Positions 3,942 to 50,519 of a stretch of DNA of 64,000 nt are shown piece by piece. Source of the DNA: Deinococcales bacterium (lineage in GTDB: Bacteria > Deinococcota > Deinococci > Deinococcales > JAAFIG01). The position numbers and the translations under genes are program-made. The notes beneath the pieces were generated by a model. It ran no database searches. It was not told the origin of the DNA and saw only the letters and a program-made list of their open reading frames with translations. Position 1 is the first letter of the stretch. Each line of letters begins with the position of its first letter. The DNA is taken from the NCBI GenBank assembly GCA_031414595.1, contig JANNVX010000109.1:1-64000 (forward strand), given 5' to 3'.

Positions 3942-4189
3942 GTCACCTCCAAGTAATCAAGTTTCATGGCGCGTTTCACTCGTAATAAAGTTTCTCGAGC
4001 CACCGCTAAAACACTGCGGCGTACCAAATCGGGCTGATGAAAATGATCGGTTAGAGCTTGCACATCGGCAATCATCAAAAAAATATCGAAATCAGATTGC
4101 AACTGTGCAGTCTGCTCGAGCATCCCAAAAAAATGCCCAAGATGCAACGCACCCGTCGGACGGATACCCGTTAAAATACGTGGTTTCAT
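3938..4189 (-). pseudogene. trpS: Truncated tryptophanyl-tRNA synthetase (N-terminal ~83 aa only)
   Basis: ILTGIRPTGALHLGH (HIGH motif) and IADVQALTDH; ends before the KMSKS region and anticodon-binding domain. Confidence 0.8.
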
Positions 4190-4791
4190 AAATTCCCTCG
4201 AGCCTCGAGCCAACGACGTGGATTCTCGAGAATATATTTTTTGGTCTTCTCAAAATGAACTTCATCTCGAATAATTGAATCGTGAAAACTACTTTCCCAC
4301 AAACGTTTCTCGAACGATTCCCAACCTGAATCACGCACCCCGCGAATATACAAATTGGTGGTTAAACTCTTAAACCTTTGCATAACCTCAGACAACGATA
4401 AAACATCCACATCCGTAGGGACAGACCCCTGTGTCTGTCCTGACTCGCCAATGGCTAAATTGCCAATGCTATTTGCCTGTGCAGGGAGGACACGGGGGTC
4501 CTCCCCTACGGGTTTTTGGTGGGGTTCGATGATAATGATGCCGTGGATATGGTCTGGCATGATGATAAATGTGTCAATTTGAATTCTTGGATAGAATTGC
4601 GGGATTTCATTCCAAGTTTTAAGAATCATTTGTCCAGCCTCATTTAATTGCATTCCGTCTCGAGTGACTGTGCCGAACCAATTGGTATCCCTTATTTGGC
4701 TGCATATTGTCACAAAATAAGCTCCTGCACTCGAGTAATCATAATTCTCGAGTCGAATGCTTTTACGATTATTTTTGAAACGTATGTTCAT
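4186..4791 (-). mobile_element. REP-associated tyrosine transposase (RAYT, IS200/Y1 HUH family)
   Basis: RKSIRLENYDYSSAGAYFVTIC, IMPDHIHGII (HUH), LWESSFHDSIIRDE, YILENP. Confidence 0.9.
4415..4509. repeat. Inverted pair of GTAG-type REP hairpins (REPIN-like) inside the RAYT coding sequence
   Basis: gtagggacagacccctgtgtctgtcct at 4415-4441 and, on the opposite strand, gtaggggaggacccccgtgtcctccct at 4509-4483. Confidence 0.85.
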
Positions 4792-28474: not shown

Positions 28475-29467
28475 CTATACGCCTTTTAGAATTGTTTCGA
28501 TTTGCTCGAGTTCGGCACTGCTAAAACCTAAGTTGTTCAATGCACCAACTGCATCTTCGATTTGCGATACCTTACTTGCGCCAATCAGTGCCGAATTGAC
28601 TTCGGGTAGGCGCAGCACCCAAGCCAATGCCATTTGTGCCAGTGTTTGCCCTCGAGTCTCTGCTAAGGCGTTTAAGCGCCTGACCTTCTCGAGTTTGTCA
28701 TCGGTCAAGTGTTCTGGTCTTAAAAAACCGTGGGCTTTGCTGGCGCGTGAACCTTCAGGTAAGCCTTTTAAGTATTTATCCGAAAGTAAACCCTGTGCGA
28801 GTGGCGAAAACACGATTGAACCAATGCCTTTTTCGTGTAGCACATCGGTTAATCCATTTTCAATCCAACGGTCAAACATATGGTAATTCGGTTGGTGAAT
28901 TAAGCACGGTGTACCAAGTTGACCCAAAATTTTAGCAGCTTCTTTGGTTTGTTCTGGGTTGTAACTCGAGATTCCAGCGTACAAAGCCCGACCACTGCGA
29001 ACAATAAAGTCAAGCGCTTGCATCGTTTCCTCGAGCGGTGTGTTTGGGTCAAAGCGGTGCGAATAAAAAATATCCACATATGGGACATTCATGCGTTTGA
29101 GGCTTTGGTCACAACTGGCAACCAAGTATTTGCGGCTGCCCCATTCACCGTAAGGTCCTGACCACATGAAGTAACCAGCCTTACTCGAGAGAATTAACTC
29201 ATCACGGTACGGCTTAAAGTCATCTTGGTAAATTCGTCCAAAGTTCTCTTCGGCGCTGCCCGGAGGAGGACCATAATTATTAGCCAAGTCAAAATGGTTA
29301 ATCCCAAGGTCAAAAGCACGGCGTAGCATCGCACGGCTGTTTTCAAAATTATCCACCCCACCAAAGTTATGCCACAAACCGAGTGAAATCGCGGGCAGTT
29401 GCAGTCCGCTTTTGCCGACCCGATTGTATTTCATGGTGTCATACCGATTGTCTGAAGCTAAATACAT
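28475..29467 (-). CDS. Aldo/keto reductase, L-glyceraldehyde 3-phosphate reductase (YghZ/Gpr-like)
   Basis: SGLQLPAISLGLWHNFG, FDLANNYGPPPGSAEENFG, YVDIFYSHR; start set at MYLASDNRY. Confidence 0.93.
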   Translation of the reverse strand: MYLASDNRYDTMKYNRVGKSGLQLPAISLGLWHNFGGVDNFENSRAMLRRAFDLGINHFDLANNYGPPPGSAEENFGRIYQDDFKPYRDELILSSKAGYFMWSGPYGEWGSRKYLVASCDQSLKRMNVPYVDIFYSHRFDPNTPLEETMQALDFIVRSGRALYAGISSYNPEQTKEAAKILGQLGTPCLIHQPNYHMFDRWIENGLTDVLHEKGIGSIVFSPLAQGLLSDKYLKGLPEGSRASKAHGFLRPEHLTDDKLEKVRRLNALAETRGQTLAQMALAWVLRLPEVNSALIGASKVSQIEDAVGALNNLGFSSAELEQIETILKGV

Positions 29468-29491
29468 GATTTGAAATTGTAACAGGTTTTC

Positions 29492-29554
29492 GTAGGGGTG
29501 AACCTTCTTGACCATAAACACGCACCTGACGGGCATGGTCGCTTGTGTTCATCC
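29492..29554 (+). repeat. REP interrupted by a 38-nt small hairpin element (29505-29542)
   Basis: gtaggggtgaacc[ttcttgaccataaacacgcacctgacgggcatggtcgc]ttgtgttcatcc. Confidence 0.75.
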
Positions 29555-29640
29555 TGTGAGACAAAGTAATTTGGAATTGCCCTATCCTCTAAGCTGTTTA
29601 CCCAATATCCCTGAAAGCTCAGAACAATTAGAATTTTTAC

Positions 29641-29802
29641 ATGGCACGTCAGAAAGTTAAAAAAACCGATCTTGAAAAACTAAAAATTGTCCTCGAGAAA
29701 CCCAAATCAATTCTTGGTCACATCGTCTCGAGACCTGTGCAAACCCACGACAACGAACGCCGCTATAACCGTAAGCGCGATAAGAAAGTTGCCGAGGAAT
29801 GA
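29641..29802 (+). CDS. Small basic protein (53 aa) missing from the ORF track
   Basis: MARQKVKKTDLEKLKIVLEKPKSILGHIVSRPVQTHDNERRYNRKRDKKVAEE; TAGAAT 6 nt before ATG; stop overlaps the MFS start (ATGA). Confidence 0.65.
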   Translation: MARQKVKKTDLEKLKIVLEKPKSILGHIVSRPVQTHDNERRYNRKRDKKVAEE

Positions 29803-31100
29803 AAGAACTCCTTGCTACGGCGGGTGGTCGCACCTTTTTAACGATGTGGCTTGGACAGAGCATTTCTGGTTTTGGCTCGAGACTGACGATTTTTGCCTTT
29901 GGCATTTGGTTGTACAAAGAAACGGGTTTGGCGACACCGCTTTATTTAACGGCTTTGGCGGGTTTTTTACCGGGCGTGCTGCTCGCGCCTATTGCTGGGG
30001 TGATTGTTGATCGTACCGACCGCCGTACTGTGATGATTTTGGTTAATTGTGTTCATACCGTGGTGACACTGGCACAGTTTTTTGTCATCTCGAGTGGACA
30101 GACCAATTTGCCAATTATTCTTGGGCTGCTGGCAATTTCTAGTGCCGCCGAAACGTTTCAGTGGCCAGCCGAATCCTCGAGCATGAGTGTGCTTGTGCCA
30201 CCAAGTCAACTTGGTCAAGCCAATGGTCTGTACGCAATGATGGGCGGAGCAGGGGATTTAATCGCCCCGATTGCTGGGGCGTTACTGGTCTCGAGTATTG
30301 GTATCGCTGGGATTTTACTGATTGACCTTGCCAGTTTTGCATTTGAGTTCTTGACGCTGTTTGTGATTCGGATTCCACCTCCAACTCAGTCGGTTATCGG
30401 CTCAAAGATGCAGGGCGGGGTGTTGGCTCAAGCCAGAGATGGTTTTAAGTTCATCACCTCGAGACCGGGGTTATTTAGTTTGCTGATTACTTTTTCGGGC
30501 GTGAATTTTCTGCTTGGAATTATCCAAAATCTTCAAGTGCCTCTGATTTTATCGCGAAGCACTGACCCAAGTGCGGTTGGTGTTATCGCCTCGAGTTTTG
30601 GCGTGGGGGTCTTGTTGGGGGGATTTTACATGACCAGCACGGGCGGTTTGCGTCCTCGAGTCCATGGGGTTTTTGCTGGGATTGGTTTTTCTGGCTTGCT
30701 TGGTACGGCTTTATTTGGTGTGGCGCAGAGTATTCCAATTTGGATGTTGGCTAATTTCTTTTTTGGTTTTCTGATGCCTGTCTTAAACGGCTCGAGTCAG
30801 AGTATTTGGCAGTCTAAAACTCCACCAGATATTCAAGGCAGGGTTTTTGCGGCGCGGCGGCAAATCGCCCAGATTACCAGTCCAATGGCATTTATTATTG
30901 CGGGTCCACTGGCAGATTTGGTTTTTAAGCCGTATTTTGCCACAGCCGATGCTTGGACTTGGTTGCTTGGTGGCTCGAGCGGACGTGGTTACGCAGCGAT
31001 GTTCCTCATTTTTGGTTTTCTGACTTGCGCTTGGGGTTTTGCTGGGTATTTTCGTCCTGCGGCTCGCAATGTCGAACGTGATATTCCAGATGCGGTTTGA
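29799..31100 (+). CDS. MFS transporter (MefA/DHA3-like)
   Basis: WLGQSISGFGS, AGVIVDRTDRR, WQSKTPPDIQGRVFA; about 12 hydrophobic segments. Confidence 0.9.
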   Translation: MKELLATAGGRTFLTMWLGQSISGFGSRLTIFAFGIWLYKETGLATPLYLTALAGFLPGVLLAPIAGVIVDRTDRRTVMILVNCVHTVVTLAQFFVISSGQTNLPIILGLLAISSAAETFQWPAESSSMSVLVPPSQLGQANGLYAMMGGAGDLIAPIAGALLVSSIGIAGILLIDLASFAFEFLTLFVIRIPPPTQSVIGSKMQGGVLAQARDGFKFITSRPGLFSLLITFSGVNFLLGIIQNLQVPLILSRSTDPSAVGVIASSFGVGVLLGGFYMTSTGGLRPRVHGVFAGIGFSGLLGTALFGVAQSIPIWMLANFFFGFLMPVLNGSSQSIWQSKTPPDIQGRVFAARRQIAQITSPMAFIIAGPLADLVFKPYFATADAWTWLLGGSSGRGYAAMFLIFGFLTCAWGFAGYFRPAARNVERDIPDAV

Positions 31101-31136
31101 AATGTATTCATCATTTTGATTGTGTAGACTTTGCGT

Positions 31137-31774
31137 ATGGCATACAGCAATTTTACACTACAAGAAGTGCTGAAAAAATTTGACCTTAAACTCGAGGAAA
31201 GCCGTAATTTGTTTGCAGATGTCACACCTCGAGTACCCACGGCACTTTTGACTGCATGGCTCGAGCAAAAAATTCCTTTGGCATTGACACTTTCTACCGA
31301 AAAAGCCCGTAGTGAATTTATTATTGCCCCAATTCTCGCGAGGTTCGTGAATTGTTGGGTAAACGATTTTCGTTGTTTTCGGGAATAGATTTTACGGTTG
31401 ACTCGAGTCTAGGCTTAAATGGCGAGTGTGATTTTTTGTTTTCTAAGTCGCCAGAGCAATTGGTTTTACTTGCACCTGTGGTTAGTGTGGTTGAGGCGAT
31501 TCCGCCCGAAGGTGCGTCTTGGAATCAAGAAGCTAAAAATGAGAGTTTTAGGAACGGTTTAGCTCAGGCTTGCGCCGAAATGCTGGCGGCTCGGGTTTTT
31601 AATGAACGCGAAGAGCATCCACTCGAGCGGGTTTTTGGAGCAGTGACCACAGGTGATGATTGGCAATTTTTAATCCTCGAGGGAAATACATTATTTGTGG
31701 GTAGTAAACGCTACCACCTAGAAGAACTCCCACAAATTCTAGGAATTTTTTGCCATATGCTCGAGACAGCTTGA
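31137..31774 (+). pseudogene. Frameshifted conserved hypothetical protein (MAYSNFTL... family, PD-(D/E)xK-like) with a 36-nt insertion
   Basis: ORFs 31131-31388 and 31352-31774 join as EKARSEFIIAPIL / EVRELLGKRFSLFSG...GECDF...VEAK...GAVTTGDDWQF if one base is restored near 31339. Confidence 0.7.
31496..31531 (+). mobile_element. 36-nt small hairpin element inserted in frame
   Basis: gcgattccgcccgaaggtgcgtcttggaatcaagaa; same GCGA...GCCCG..AGGTGC...TCAAGAA frame as the copies at 29505 and 33545. Confidence 0.7.
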
Positions 31775-31970
31775 CGCGCTTTTGCTTATGACGTTTGTTA
31801 TTCTCGAGACTTCACTTTTTTCTAATTTTTTTTACATAAAATCCTCATGCTGTATACTTATTGCCTTTTGAAGTAAAACTGTGTTGTATGGGACATTCTG
31901 GGTTTGACCTTAGCGGCTTACACCACTAAAATGAGACGCTTATCGTTATTATCTTAGAGGAGGCTGGAAA

Positions 31971-32363
31971 GTGGATTACACAACAGAGGTGACAGGTGCG
32001 TTGTACATTGGTCTGTTTGCGTTGATTGGGGCGGGAATTGTTTATATCACGCTCGAGATTGCAAAGTTGGCGTTTTTTTATGCAGGGTCGCGGCGATTCG
32101 GCGGCAATAAAGCTAAGGATTCGGTTTACGAATGTGGTATGGAAACCATTGGCGATACCAATGTGCAATTCAATTTGAATTACTACTTGTTTGCCATGCT
32201 TTTTGTGATTTTTGATGTCGAAGCTGCACTGCTCTATCCGTGGGCTGTGGCATTCGATACTCTTGGGGTCGGTGGTTTACTTGCCGTGCTGTCTTTCTTG
32301 GTGATTTTGTTCCTTGGGTTTTTATACGCACTTCGTAAAGGAGCATTAAAATGGGTTTACTAG
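31971..32363 (+). CDS. nuoA: NADH-quinone oxidoreductase subunit A
   Basis: [30 protein letters not shown]. Confidence 0.95.
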
Positions 32364-32902
32364 GCACGCAAGCTCGTCCGGATAACGTTATTCTTGGTTC
32401 GCTTGATGATTTAATTAACCTCTCTCGTTCGAGAAGTTTATGGCCCTTAACTTTTGGTATTGCTTGCTGTGCCATCGAAATGATGAACTCGAGCGCCACC
32501 CGTTACGACATGGATCGTTTTGGCGTTTTTTACCGCAATACGCCGCGTCAAGCCGATGTGATGATTGTCTCGGGGACGGTTAATAAAAAAATGGGTAAGG
32601 TCGTGCGTCAACTTTGGGAGCAAATGTCCGAGCCTAAATGGGTCATCAGCATGGGCGCATGTGCCAACCAAGGTGGACCATTTCGCCAAGGCTATAGCGT
32701 GGTTGAAGGGGTAGACAAAATTATCCCCGTAGATATTTATGTTCCCGGTTGCCCGCCGCGTCCCGAAGCCCTGATGCAAGCCCTGCTTTTGCTGCGAGAC
32801 AAAATCGCTGACCCTGCGGCGCGTTATGTGCCGGGGACAATGATGGATGCTGATTTTGACCCACTCGCTGAACCCGGTCATGATGGACGGGTGTTGTTGT
32901 GA
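32351..32902 (+). CDS. nuoB: NADH-quinone oxidoreductase subunit B
   Basis: [30 protein letters not shown]. Confidence 0.97.
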
Positions 32903-33873
32903 GCCAACCCTCATCCGCTCCAATTGCTCCAGCTAAAATCTGGCATATCCCACTGCTCGAGTCCGACAAGATAGAAAATCTGATAGCTGGCTTAAAAGCT
33001 CGAGCCGAAACACTGTTTGACACGATTCAAATTACTGTTGCTCTCGAGGATTACCGCACCCTATGTGAACGCCTCTTCAAAGCTGGTTTTGATTTTCCGC
33101 AAAGCATGAGCGGTACAGATTTTGAATGGGGTTTAGGGGTTGCGTTGCAACTGCAACAACTCGAGTCCAAACGCAAAGTCACGGTGCGGACGTACTGCAC
33201 CTATCAAAATGCCCATGTCCCAACTGTTTCTGACCTTTGGGGAGGCGTAGATTGGCACGAACGCGAAGCCTATGACCTTGTGGGCATTATTTTTGATGGT
33301 CATGAAGACTCGATAAATGGTCATCCACGCCGAATTCTGCTCGAGGATCATTGGACGATTCACCCACTGCAAAAGCGCTATAACACCCGTGGCTACTTAA
33401 TCCATGGCTGGACAGAAAAACCATTCCCAACTCCAGCCCCGTGGGAAGAAGGTTTCCAATCCTTCTCTAGCGCTCCTGTGGCTGTTGCTCACGTTGCCCC
33501 ACCCGCGCCGAAAATTGTTCCTGTCGTTGCCGTAGGGGCGAGGCTTCTTGACCCTAAAGCAGCACCTGACGGGCTTGGGTCGCACGCCTCGCCCGACCCC
33601 GCCGAAGCCCCCGCTCCTAAAGCCGAAGCTGCCCCAGTCGTCTCGAGTGACCCACCAAAGAAAGTCGCTAAAAAATGGGTTCCAAAAGGCGAAGCCGCGC
33701 CAATTGTTACCGAAGCCGCCCCTGAAGCTGCCTCGAGTGAACCCGTGCCTGTTGTCTCGAGTGAACCTGCGCCCGTCGTTTCGAGTCCAGAAGTTGTTGC
33801 CGTCTCGAGTCCAGAAGCCGCCCCAGAAGAAAAACCCCGCAATCCTAAAATTAAGCGTTGGGAACCCAGATAA
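32899..33873 (+). CDS. nuoC: NADH-quinone oxidoreductase subunit C with long Pro/Ala/Glu-rich tail
   Basis: [26 protein letters not shown]...RRILL...HPL. Confidence 0.93.
33532..33594 (+). repeat. REP inside nuoC, interrupted by a 39-nt small hairpin element (33545-33583)
   Basis: gtaggggcgaggc[ttcttgaccctaaagcagcacctgacgggcttgggtcgc]acgcctcgccc. Confidence 0.85.
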
Positions 33874-33885
33874 AGGAGGGATGAT

Positions 33886-35067
33886 ATGACCGCAGTCGCA
33901 GATAAACCGAATAATGCTCGTAATACGTCCGGTTCTGTCATGAACCCGACGACAGTTGAACGGGTCGCGGGTCGCTCGGACGAGATGCTTCTCAACCTTG
34001 GACCACAACACCCAGCCACCCACGGTGTACTTCGAGTTCTTATGGGTGTGGATGGCGAACGTGTCACCAAGGCAATTCCACACATTGGGTACTTGCATCG
34101 CAACCATGAAAAACTCGAGGAAGTGCGTACTTATCCGATGTGTATTCCCTATACCGACCGCATGGATTACGTGTCGGGAATGCAGAACGAATTGCCATTG
34201 TGTTTGGCGGTAGAGGAGATGCTAGGTATCGAAGTCCCAGAACGCGCCAAATATGTGCGAACGATTTTATTTGAACTAAGCCGTATTGCGAGTCACATGG
34301 TCTGGATTGGCACATACATGCTCGACCTTGGGGCAATTACTCCGTTTTTATATGCGTTTCGTGACCGCGAAATGATTCTCGACATCATCGAAGAAACGGC
34401 TGGGGCGCGGTTATTACCAAATTATTTCACCTATGGCGGTGTGCGCCGTGACCATCATCCGCGCATGATGCAGGACATTCTCGAGTTCCTGACGTGGTTT
34501 GAGCGTAAGCTCCCAGAGTACGAAGCCCTGACCATTGATGCACCAGTCTTCCAAGCCCGTACCGTTGGTGTTGGTGTGCTAGACCCGCAATTGGCGCTCA
34601 ATCATGGTGTGACCGGACCAAACCTGCGTGGTAGCGGTATCGGCTGGGATTTACGCCGCGACGACCCATATGATGCCTACCCACATTTGGATTTCGAGGT
34701 CTGTGTGGAGTACGGCTGCGATGCCTACTCAAGAAGCCGCGCTCGTTTTCGTGAATTCCGCGAGAGCATTAAAATTATTCGTCAAGCTGTTAATCAGTGT
34801 CCAAAAGGCGGCGCGTACTTACCAAAACTGCCGCGTCTTAAACCCGTGGCTGGTATGGAACGTTACCGCGCTGTGGAAATCTCGAGGGGACATCTTGGGG
34901 TGCATATTGTGGCCGACGGTTCAGAAAAACCGTGGCGTGTTAAGCACCGCAGCCCGAGTTTCTGCACCTTGCAAGCCTTAGCGGACATGGCTGTGGGTTC
35001 TAAATTCTCGGATGCAATCGCTATTCTTGGCAGCATTGACATTGTTCTAGGGGAGATTGACCGATGA
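33886..35067 (+). CDS. nuoD: NADH-quinone oxidoreductase subunit D
   Basis: NLGPQHPATHGVLR, GYLHR, DRMDY, GSIDIVLGEIDR. Confidence 0.97.
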   Translation: MTAVADKPNNARNTSGSVMNPTTVERVAGRSDEMLLNLGPQHPATHGVLRVLMGVDGERVTKAIPHIGYLHRNHEKLEEVRTYPMCIPYTDRMDYVSGMQNELPLCLAVEEMLGIEVPERAKYVRTILFELSRIASHMVWIGTYMLDLGAITPFLYAFRDREMILDIIEETAGARLLPNYFTYGGVRRDHHPRMMQDILEFLTWFERKLPEYEALTIDAPVFQARTVGVGVLDPQLALNHGVTGPNLRGSGIGWDLRRDDPYDAYPHLDFEVCVEYGCDAYSRSRARFREFRESIKIIRQAVNQCPKGGAYLPKLPRLKPVAGMERYRAVEISRGHLGVHIVADGSEKPWRVKHRSPSFCTLQALADMAVGSKFSDAIAILGSIDIVLGEIDR

Positions 35068-36689: not shown

Positions 36690-37741
36690 GTCTCTTAAAA
36701 GATATTTGGAATGCGGTATCTGGTGTTGGTAAGGGCATGGAAAAGGTCTACGATGAACAATTCGATCCGATTTTCACCGAAATGTACCCATTTGACATGC
36801 CAAAACTGCCGCCAACCAGTGTCCAGAGTTTGGCACTGATTAAAAACGAGGATGGCTCAGACAGGTGCGTGTCTTGCTTAGCCTGTGAAAAAGTCTGCCC
36901 AAGCCAAGTGATTACCATTGAGCGCAAGAAAAACCCTGCTGGTAAAGGCTTTGTTCTCGAGCGTTTCGACATTGATTTGGTCAACTGCATGTACTGCGCG
37001 GCTTGTGTCGAATCCTGCCCAGCCTCGGCAATTGTCACGATTCAAGACTTTGAATTGTCTACCCCGAATCTGCAAACCCTAAAAGCCGATAAGGACTTCC
37101 TCGATTTCCAAGGCATTCGCGCTCAGCAGTGGTACAGCCCGAAAATTGGGGTCGAGTACCGCGAAAATGTCACCTCGAGTAATGTCCACGGAGCAATTGT
37201 TAAAGCCCCATTGATTGACCAACCCGGCGGCGCTGCTGAATATGAAAAATTAAAAGCGGCTGGCACAGAAATCCCTGTCAATAATGCCCGTCGTCCGGCT
37301 AACGCCATGTCTGAGCTTTCCATTCTCGAGTACAAACAATTAAAGCATGAGCCAATCAGTGCCACAGCCGCCAAACTCGAGTCAAAACCAGTTTCAGTCA
37401 ATATCCCTGTCAACATCCCCGCCCCAGTCCTCGAGACTGTGGCTGTGTTATCTGCATCTGTCGCCTCATCTGCCCCAAAATCCAAGAAAATCAAACGTTG
37501 GGGAGAACCTGCTTCCGAAGAATCCACCCTACCCGCCGTTGCCCCCGAACCCGTAGGGGCGAGGCATGCCTCGCCCGACCCCGCCGAAGCCCCCCTGCCG
37601 AAAGCCGAAGCTGTTGCCGTTGCCCCAGTCTCGAGTCCAGAACCAGCCGTCTCGAGTGCCGAAGTCCCAGTCTCGAGTGCCGAACCAGCCGAAGAAAAAC
37701 CAAAAAATCCCAAAATTAAGCGTTGGGAGCCTAAATCATGA
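36686..37741 (+). CDS. nuoI: NADH-quinone oxidoreductase subunit I with long C-terminal tail
   Basis: Two 4Fe-4S motifs CVSCLACEKVCP and CMYCAACVESCP; position between nuoH and nuoJ. Confidence 0.93.
   Translation: MSLLKDIWNAVSGVGKGMEKVYDEQFDPIFTEMYPFDMPKLPPTSVQSLALIKNEDGSDRCVSCLACEKVCPSQVITIERKKNPAGKGFVLERFDIDLVNCMYCAACVESCPASAIVTIQDFELSTPNLQTLKADKDFLDFQGIRAQQWYSPKIGVEYRENVTSSNVHGAIVKAPLIDQPGGAAEYEKLKAAGTEIPVNNARRPANAMSELSILEYKQLKHEPISATAAKLESKPVSVNIPVNIPAPVLETVAVLSASVASSAPKSKKIKRWGEPASEESTLPAVAPEPVGARHASPDPAEAPLPKAEAVAVAPVSSPEPAVSSAEVPVSSAEPAEEKPKNPKIKRWEPKS
37553..37576 (+). repeat. Intact REP inside nuoI (translated as VGARHASP)
   Basis: gtaggggcgaggcatgcctcgccc. Confidence 0.85.
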
Positions 37742-50495: not shown

Positions 50496-50519
50496 GTAGG
50501 GGCGAGGCACGCCTCGCCT
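50496..50519 (+). repeat. Intergenic GTAG-type REP
   Basis: gtaggggcgaggcacgcctcgcct, same type as the REPs in nuoC and nuoI. Confidence 0.85.

Follow-up and report, generated by a model that had tools for sequence, protein, structure and literature searches.

A family of hairpin-forming repeats of 36–40 nucleotides that inserts into palindromes and genes of uncultured Deinococcales, and how it may move

The window examined here – the whole of a 64,000-nucleotide stretch of DNA from a Deinococcales bacterium (C109:1-64000) – belongs to a draft genome of 4.49 Mb in 120 contigs, with 47% G+C and a completeness of 94%. Beside or within a group of its genes, namely nuoA-B-C-D, a gene for a major facilitator superfamily (MFS) transporter and one for an aldo/keto reductase, lie three copies of a very small repeat, 36 to 39 nucleotides (nt) long, which is the subject of this article. 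Two of them occupy the loops of repetitive extragenic palindromic (REP) sequences, and the remaining one is in frame within a gene. Orthologous loci in related genomes show that this repeat – hereafter the element – enters its sites whole, mostly between A and G, and leaves the target unduplicated.

The first copy (29505..29542, minus strand; 38 nt) runs from GCGACCAT to ATGGTCAAGAA on the minus strand, reads GCGACCATGCCCGTCAGGTGCGTGTTTATGGTCAAGAA in full on the element strand and has the stem gaccat/atggtc. It sits upstream of the aldo/keto reductase gene, in the loop of a GTAG-headed REP (29492..29554, plus strand) with the arms GTAGGGGTGAAC(C) and (TTGT)GTTCATCC. The second (31496..31531, plus strand; 36 nt; GCGATTCCGCCCGAAGGTGCGTCTTGGAATCAAGAA in full), whose stem is gattcc/ggaatc, lies in frame in an open reading frame (ORF) of 140 amino acids (31352..31774, plus strand), to which it contributes 12 residues (AIPPEGASWNQE) between VE and AKN; the ORF fills a variable slot between the MFS gene and nuoA. 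The third (33545..33583, minus strand; 39 nt), running from GCGACCCAA to GGGTCAAGAA on the minus strand (GCGACCCAAGCCCGTCAGGTGCTGCTTTAGGGTCAAGAA in full on the element strand) and with the stem gaccc/gggtc, occupies the loop of another REP (33532..33594, plus strand; GTAGGGGCGAGGC ... ACGCCTCGCCC), which is read in frame as part of a Pro/Ala-rich C-terminal extension of NuoC. The nuoC gene itself (32899..33873, plus strand) encodes 324 amino acids, of which only residues 45-166 form the Complex1_30kDa domain, and it ends in a long variable tail containing the REP and the element. These three copies had been proposed in an earlier note, made from the letters of the window alone, and a covariance model returns exactly the same ends, strands and lengths, with scores of 53.9, 45.7 and 61.6 bits, respectively, the last being the top match of the genome. 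Two REPs of the same type, which that note had regarded as empty equivalents of the nuoC REP, are genuine GTAG-headed REPs without the element: one (37553..37576, plus strand; GTAGGGGCGAGGCATGCCTCGCCC) is followed by a paralogue of the nuoC tail sequence, and the other (50496..50518, plus strand) has the loop CACG.

The case for insertion is made by the state of the same loci in relatives. At seven orthologous loci – the three window sites and four others – a related genome lacks the element precisely, the difference amounting to 36–39 nt, and at all seven the inserted unit has the form GCG...CAAGA(N)A. The site of the first copy is filled in the source genome (G000) and in G005, and two relatives of the same genus lack the element there: G004 carries the REP with a loop of cttgt and no element (gtaggggtgaac-cttgt-gttcacc), and G001 has neither REP nor element. 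At the second site, filled in the source genome, the orthologue in G011, from another genus, reads gtcgag gcg aaaaac (V E A K N), to which the window adds 36 bases, that is 12 codons; the earlier note had considered orthologues that keep the same residues without the DNA motif, and this one reads straight through V E A K N with no element. The third site, filled in the source genome, is empty in G001 (89% identical over the query), where the REP of the nuoC tail lacks the 39-nt element; in G007 and G003 a different repeat stands there, in G003 with two copies of the element.

The four further sites, all filled in the source genome, widen the range of contexts. C105:20921, empty in G001, lies within a repeat of a third palindromic type, and C105:24169, filled also in G005 and empty in G001, lies in the loop of another hairpin. 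C42:2724 and C42:3419, both empty in G005 and G003, differ by 39 nt in non-palindromic contexts, the former copy being within a long open frame. The claim that the element inserts both into REP loops and in frame into genes is thus borne out. No target duplication is seen at any of the seven empty sites beyond an ambiguity of 1–2 bases, with a, g, t, a, a, a and a preceding the insertion and g, g, g, g, a, g and g following it. A target duplication of 1–2 nt (G, AG or AA) was also considered; it would fit some sites and fails at the third window site, at the REP2 sites and at C42:2724.

The window on its own would not have established a repeat family, as a search of it with a short core motif, allowing one mismatch, gives three matches (one of them spurious) against 1.2 expected, which is not beyond chance. 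In the whole source genome, a core regular expression finds 125 places and a full-form expression 107 copies of 35–39 nt, counted to CAAGA. The covariance model, built from 58 distinct copies, gives 125 matches at E<=0.001, including exactly the three known copies and no other in the window, so that further copies do exist genome-wide; such a scan had been suggested in the earlier note.

How far the element extends was assessed with a strict pattern, indifferent to the stem, on 41 genomes: the source genome, 18 others of the same uncultured Deinococcales family and 22 of four sister families. It matches 57 times in the source genome and 6–232 times in each of 17 of the 18 other family members, G014 and G016 having more than 200 copies each; the sole exception is G002, of the same genus (2.3 Mb, 82% complete). 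In the sister families, 0/6, 0/6, 0/5 and 1/5 genomes are positive (1/22 in total), and a reversed-pattern control has no match in any of the 41 genomes. Across 150 high-quality genomes of the phylum outside the family, the covariance model finds single matches of 24–25 bits in five genomes – two of them in one conserved gene and one element-like – and never more than one copy. Named records with complementary stems are nearly all from metagenome-assembled genomes (MAGs) labelled 'Deinococcales bacterium'; a small number of MAGs assigned to Truepera or Trueperaceae carry a form of 35 nt. In a scan of 185,579 species genomes, those of the 80 matches listed that lie outside Deinococcota form 2–4 of the six stem pairs, which is consistent with chance. 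The 13-nt core is very strongly conserved across genera.

The earlier note had placed the element against a cyanobacterial background, and this framing does not hold for its carriers, which are Deinococcales MAGs, or for the operon, which is nuoABCD. To our knowledge, mobile repeats of such small size have in essence a single precedent, in Nostocaceae, where Elhai et al. (2008) reportedly defined the small dispersed repeats (SDRs) SDR1-8, of 21–27 nt. Compared with these by description only, the element is alike in being a very small dispersed repeat that forms a hairpin with compensatory changes, inserts into copies of itself and is embedded in short tandem purine-rich repeats and other small repeats, its mobility being deduced, as theirs was, from comparing relatives. 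It differs in length (36–40 nt versus 21–27 nt), in belonging to Deinococcota, in having no link to the HIP1 palindrome and in that its ends, the absence of target duplication and the A^G rule are defined by seven empty sites. PMC5861425 reports that no SDR-like repeat was found outside Nostocaceae, and PMC3116915 likewise cites the Nostocaceae work. An Rfam scan of positions 29000-34200 gave no match at E<=1, the core 13-mer and its complement do not occur in the open-access literature searched, and in that same open-access literature we found no published account of such an element in Deinococcota. The element thus counts among the smallest mobile elements yet observed and, on the literature searched, would be the first such family from outside cyanobacteria. 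It is a second, apparently unrelated family of very small repeats, for which the ends are exact, seven sites are known empty, the target rule is simple, the fold is clear and hundreds of copies are spread over about 20 genomes.

The fold is best described on one strand. Two unpaired 5′ bases are followed by an outer stem of 6–7 bp, which varies while remaining paired. Inside it is an inner helix that does not vary, GCCC/GG-T-GC, in which one T bulges out and which ends in a loop of the form G-N-N-A or G-N-A. The 3′ side also includes an unpaired, mostly T-rich stretch of 5–7 nt, and the tail, AAGA(N)A, is unpaired as well. Columns without variation in the 58-row alignment are those of GCCCG, of GGTGC with the A that precedes it, and of AAGA; the arms differ between subfamilies. 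RNAalifold renders the inner helix as G-C, C-G, bulged T, C-G and C-G with the closing G-N(N)-A, and adds one further pair, which takes the forms A-U, U-G, C-G and U-A. Of 76 distinct copies, 52 have a G-N-N-A loop and 24 a G-N-A loop. At the 9-23 position, T.G juxtaposition is frequent (33, versus 7 for C.A).

The covariation of the outer stem, which the earlier note had seen in three copies, is now formally supported by 119 copies (113 distinct) from the source genome and named MAGs, aligned with the covariance model. In this alignment – fitted to the model and hence favouring structure – 88.1% of cells pair, versus at most 54% when the partner is slid, and 138 cells show double changes, versus 47.7 +/- 5.2 in shuffles. 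The covariation score is 0.269, compared with 0.094 after shuffling (0/500 shuffles reach it) and at most 0.067 when slid, and double changes occur in five of the six outer pairs. A model-free count agrees: over the first five outer pairs of 124 copies, 592 of 620 pairs are Watson–Crick, with 3–4 pair types per position. These 124 were retained from 154 distinct copies, and the 30 left out include chance hits and the GCGCGA(N)3 subfamily, in whose stem a tandem G.A/A.G replaces two C-G pairs.

The apex invites a comparison of its own. C-GNA-G and C-GNNA-G are the classic extra-stable apices of DNA mini-hairpins, d(GCGAAGC) and d(GCGAAAGC), studied by Hirao and colleagues, and the element's invariant apex C-G-N(N)-A-G is the same motif, in its triloop form in one third of the distinct copies. 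The mini-hairpins are a structural motif and not a mobile element, and the likeness gives a hint as to why the element may act as single-stranded DNA.

Copies inside genes are not confined to the window: 15 of 106 in the source genome lie in long open frames, eight in sense and seven in antisense orientation. The observation that coding copies have lengths divisible by three and the intergenic one does not is correct for the three copies of the window; genome-wide it shrinks to a weak trend, of the kind that selection would produce, since 9 of the 15 copies in long open frames have such a length, compared with 32 of the 91 elsewhere. In the commonest copy, five of the six reading frames are open (by inspection). 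Insertions that keep the frame persist inside genes as 12–13 extra residues. Selfish DNA of 12–13 codons can be threaded into proteins – NuoC and the products of other genes – as well as into other repeats. Palindromic selfish DNA tolerated in frame, often in linkers and tails, has precedents in the Rickettsia palindromic elements (RPEs) and in intragenic REPs. RPEs differ in size, spanning some 100–150 bp. They also differ in carrying a CGTC tag (PMC3733652), and no loop nesting is reported in the accessible portion of that paper.

Tabulation of insertion sites, which the earlier note had called for along with empty alleles, yields 89 unique contexts. The insertion is immediately preceded (position -1) by A in 56 of them, by T in 16, by G in 14 and by C in 3; A also stands at position -2 in 54, and C at position -3 in 43. 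The base that follows CAAGA is A in 61 contexts and C in 18, and a G comes next in 48. The resulting target consensus, (C/G)AA^G, is loose.

Perfect hairpins of at least 6 bp directly flank 26 of 106 copies, versus 1% of 5000 random positions, and about 16 further copies lie in one REP type that the strict test scored as having no hairpin. This type (GTAGGGACAGACCCCTGTGTCTGTCC) has 72 empty and 16 filled copies in the source genome; the filled ones share flanks and therefore probably spread as a composite. Both orientations of the element are found in palindromic REP loops. Another 16 of the 106 are nested in or abut other copies, and the remainder lie in genes, in purine-rich short units (ggcgaaa, ggcaaaa, gaggaaa), in a few longer repeats with two slots and in other contexts. 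The description of the element as a parasite of REPs is therefore apt in that REP loops are a favoured target, and too narrow for the rest of the copies. The preferred places are likely to be single-stranded and comprise A-rich purine repeats, hairpin loops (of REPs and others) on their 3′ side and, within the element itself, the G-N-N-A loop, the tail and the ends.

Two of the contexts deserve mention in their own right. At C105:23000-24300 and in G001, paralogous hairpins with a conserved 11-nt loop (agggatgaagt) and covarying stems stand just upstream of a ribosome-binding site; two of them host copies of the element, and they may constitute a family of cis-regulatory hairpins. A recurrent insertion context (..ttgactgattaaccgactaa^..^aaaggagt..) is found at C11:13870-13907, about 250 nt upstream of a CRISPR array (C11:14152 onward), and also on other contigs (C55, C86) and in G006; it may be part of the CRISPR leader.

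The source genome holds ten nested insertions in which removal of the inner copy leaves an intact host copy, with six insertion points at gcccgNNa^ggtgc, two between the stem and gcccg, one at aggt^gc and one at ttta^tggtc. The relatives add head-to-tail tandems without spacers, tandem dimers within the loop of a host, two different subfamilies abutting head to tail, an insertion into the tail of a host at tcaa^gaa, and a copy whose loop contains 40 nt of other sequence. In the element contexts listed, copies are single, nested or head-to-tail, and there are no inverted doublets.

Left and right halves of the element are about equally common (137 versus 140). Those orphan right halves that adjoin elements, in the source genome and in G003, all start exactly at GGTGC after A, which is also the hot spot of nested insertion, and this coincidence fits an enzyme that cuts at A^G. 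Halves separated by a gene, as an autonomous parent would have them, were looked for among the orphans, which turned out to be point-mutated copies, parts of nests or chance matches. One locus, C42:3570-3640, conserved in three genomes and with different units in each, carries right halves only (GGTGC..CAAGA units), arrayed after acttacaa in the source genome and in G003.

Taken together, the nested insertions, tandems and half-elements indicate a site-specific enzyme that cuts and joins single-stranded DNA. We consider it probable that the element is a family of non-autonomous mobile DNA of 36–40 nt, with the ends 5′-GCG ... CAAGA(N)A-3′, moved in trans by such an enzyme – speculatively an HUH enzyme resembling the REP-associated tyrosine transposases (RAYTs) – and the earlier proposal of a tiny non-autonomous family recognised by structure agrees with the covarying stem and the seven empty sites. 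The enzyme would recognise the invariant loop and the fold. Its cuts in single-stranded DNA would fall after an A at three places – the left junction, the right end and the target – and it would then rejoin the ends, in a route that would resemble the peel-and-paste transposition of the IS200/IS605 family. The element shares with that family (IS608, ISDra2) and with palindrome-associated transposable elements (PATEs) the lack of target duplication, insertion beside a short single-strand sequence and hairpin-defined ends, and it would also share the logic of cutting after a short motif at left flank, right end and target. Unlike them, it has one whole-length hairpin rather than separate left and right ones, about 38 nt rather than more than 100, and a loose A^G target rather than a fixed tetra- or pentanucleotide. 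An autonomous partner with the same ends encoding TnpA was not found in the 94%-complete draft, nor was any gene between separated halves. With exact ends, empty sites, a target rule and a fold in hand, the mechanism is directly testable with oligonucleotides and two candidate enzymes.

Those candidates are the two RAYT-like genes of the source genome, which also has one TnpB gene and two reverse transcriptases; the Pfam Y1_Tnp model gives one match and a RAYT protein query two, all RAYT-like. One gene lies in the window (4189..4776, minus strand), contains two REPs in its own reading frame and is 43% identical to the other, at C98:106767-107468, whose product scores 62.9 bits on the NCBIfam model for REP-associated tyrosine transposases, below the cut-off of 80. 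The REPs inside the window gene are at 4413-4440 and 4483-4510. More widely, GTAGGG occurs inside 20 of 22 RAYT genes of the element-bearing family, between the HUH and tyrosine motifs and usually as an inverted pair, and several RAYT genes also have REPs 17–42 nt from each end.

That the mobiliser is the host's RAYT-like HUH tyrosine transposase is the most speculative step of the argument, a tentative identification that we would place somewhat short of likely. Compared with REPs and REPINs (REP doublets forming hairpins), the RAYT substrates, the element is alike in being a single hairpin of 20–40 nt in high copy number, sometimes in genes, in a genome with RAYT genes. It differs in lacking both the GTAG/CGTC tag and inverted doublets, in apparently not flanking RAYT genes in its own right and in inserting into REPs, the GTAG REPs of this genome being a separate, coexisting family. 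The RAYT of E. coli acts as a monomer: it cleaves at a CT dinucleotide to either side of one REP hairpin, with two bases of GTAG as its guide, and is able to transfer strands (PMC3479197). A monomer cleaving to either side of one hairpin has the geometry that the element needs, and by this analogy the enzyme would suit a one-hairpin element, though the element has no GTAG. The suggestion of an HUH enzyme such as the RAYT is a reasonable guess, weakened by the absence of the tag that defines RAYT substrates. G002 lacks the element, the REP type (5 matches versus 7 in the control) and RAYT together, which is compatible with RAYT dependence and also with genome reduction.

Several observations weigh against this interpretation and should be set out together. 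On the side of the enzyme, no analysis here ties any enzyme to the element. None of the 58 aligned copies contains GTAG or CGTC, their ends being GCG and CAAGA(N)A throughout. The number of RAYT-like matches does not follow that of element copies (5 versus 6 in G013, 2 versus 185 in G017), G005 has 42 copies with no RAYT found (84% complete), and the element lies inside or within 50 nt of just 4 of 22 RAYT genes, always with GTAG REPs that can explain these cases. On the side of the target, the rule is loose – the A before the cut is missing at two of the seven empty sites and the G after it at one – and the 3′ end is fuzzy, with CAAGAA, CAAGACA, CAAGAGA and, at one REP type, CAAGAC. As for the fold, the four inner pairs never vary, so that covariation neither supports nor contradicts the inner helix, and folding as DNA, by nearest-neighbour parameters, yields a modest -5 to -6 kcal/mol (z about -1.1), so that the case for the fold rests on covariation and not on stability. 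Orientation relative to GC skew shows no significant bias (40 versus 49 overall; 9 versus 18 where |skew|>0.02), the skew being too weak for this test to be informative. Finally, no excision circle or within-population empty allele was seen in contigs, which are uninformative on excision or expression; Logan contigs from four near-identical freshwater-sediment runs and one distant run end at element copies, and none spans an empty site.

A bolder reading, which we regard as rather doubtful, places the element in a new class of its own among mobile DNA. It would be a transposon complete in itself, a single hairpin of about 38 nt whose one fold would hold the recognition loop, both cleavage sites and perhaps a guide; the enzyme moving it would not be a RAYT of the classical GTAG-reading kind, and its destinations would be exposed hairpin loops, on their 3′ side. 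The guide could speculatively be the unpaired YTT stretch, whose complement, AAG, occurs in the tail and in the targets. This idea was tried and fared poorly, as only 55 of 76 distinct copies have YTT and no association between internal-loop sequence and type of end was apparent. If the reading of a new class is true, no smaller transposon would have its ends and target rule mapped, and the element would be a natural probe of where single-stranded hairpins form in vivo; if the enzyme is found, it could become a compact tool for placing a 38-nt tag at hairpin loops.

One alternative, unlikely on balance, keeps the cutting and joining of DNA and changes the enzyme, to a tyrosine or serine recombinase acting on folded single strands, as integron integrases act on attC, or to a family-specific nuclease–ligase. 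It would account for the restriction of the element to one family and a few Truepera MAGs while RAYT-like genes are also present in sister families without it, and for the missing GTAG tag. The attC sites are recognised by structure over sequence, and the combination of a conserved loop with a variable stem resembles this mode of recognition. Yet no candidate gene was found, the orphan halves include no autonomous partner with the same ends, and the absence of target duplication together with single-strand-like targets fits HUH chemistry well.

Movement through RNA is, in our estimate, improbable. In this account a transcript of the element forms a hairpin with a GNRA-like loop, from which a reverse transcriptase of the host makes new DNA copies – the type of route that Elhai et al. 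are said to have favoured for the cyanobacterial SDRs. Two reverse-transcriptase genes are present in the genome, copies occur in both orientations within transcribed genes, and the G-N-N-A loops and the excess of T.G over C.A at 9-23 fit the folding of one strand, possibly as RNA, although the strand asymmetry fits single-stranded DNA equally. The half-elements, however, start at the exact A^GGTGC and not at the scattered 5′ truncation points to be expected from reverse transcription, and the ends are exact, without the A-tails or variable 3′ ends of retroelements. Moreover, the G-N-A triloop closed by C-G, present in one third of distinct copies, is a classic mini-hairpin motif of DNA and not of RNA.

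It is very improbable that the element has no mobility of its own and is a long-loop variant of local REPs, spreading passively with them and through recombination between copies. In its favour, REP-type palindromes do hold about 40% of copies, and shared flanks surround the 16 filled copies of one REP type. PMC3733652 describes REPs inside genes and REP families whose loops are large and self-complementary, though the accessible part of it does not present them as separate mobile units. But at three sites an orthologous REP holds the element in one genome and lacks it in another, copies in genes and other non-palindromic contexts have precise empty orthologues, ten copies are nested in the element itself, and in a relative with 218 copies the REP head is not enriched. 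On these comparisons, the insertions outside REPs with empty orthologues largely refute a passive origin.

That the element is a selected functional motif and not selfish DNA – a protein-binding site, a terminator, a small-RNA module or a stray CRISPR repeat – is hardly credible: the strong conservation of its 13-nt core across genera, its CRISPR-repeat-like size and the one copy near a CRISPR array are outweighed by copies lying in both orientations in coding frames, inside each other and in tandem, by the absence of an Rfam match at E<=1 over 29000-34200 and by presence or absence that differs among close relatives at the same locus. As to CRISPR in particular, the three arrays of the genome use unrelated repeats of 35–36 nt, and the tandems of the element have no spacers.

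The element has practical consequences as well, in that it affects gene calling, repeat annotation and MAG assembly, contigs being broken at its copies. Its two coding hosts in the window lie in stretches that are themselves variable. The C-terminal extension of NuoC (33400-33873), of about 150 residues rich in Pro, Ala and Glu, varies among close relatives by whole repeats: the REP, a second palindromic repeat, copies of the element and CTCGAG-containing units. The paralogous tail sequence with the empty REP, at 37553-37731, lies within another gene.

The slot between the MFS gene and nuoA (31100-31870) is likewise variable: occupied here by the 140-residue ORF, it holds in the two closest relatives an unrelated ORF of 256 amino acids on the opposite strand, with an equal total length, and in G007 almost nothing. 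A Pfam and NCBIfam search with the 140-residue ORF gave no family match. It shows a D...E-x-K-like pattern (GECDF ... VVEAK), which the second copy of the element splits as VE|AK, the last codons of that copy (CAA GAA) recreating Q-E ahead of AK; that the ORF has a nuclease fold would be a guess from this pattern. CTCGAG, finally, is abundant within and between genes across the window, for example at 31403, 31623 and 33647.

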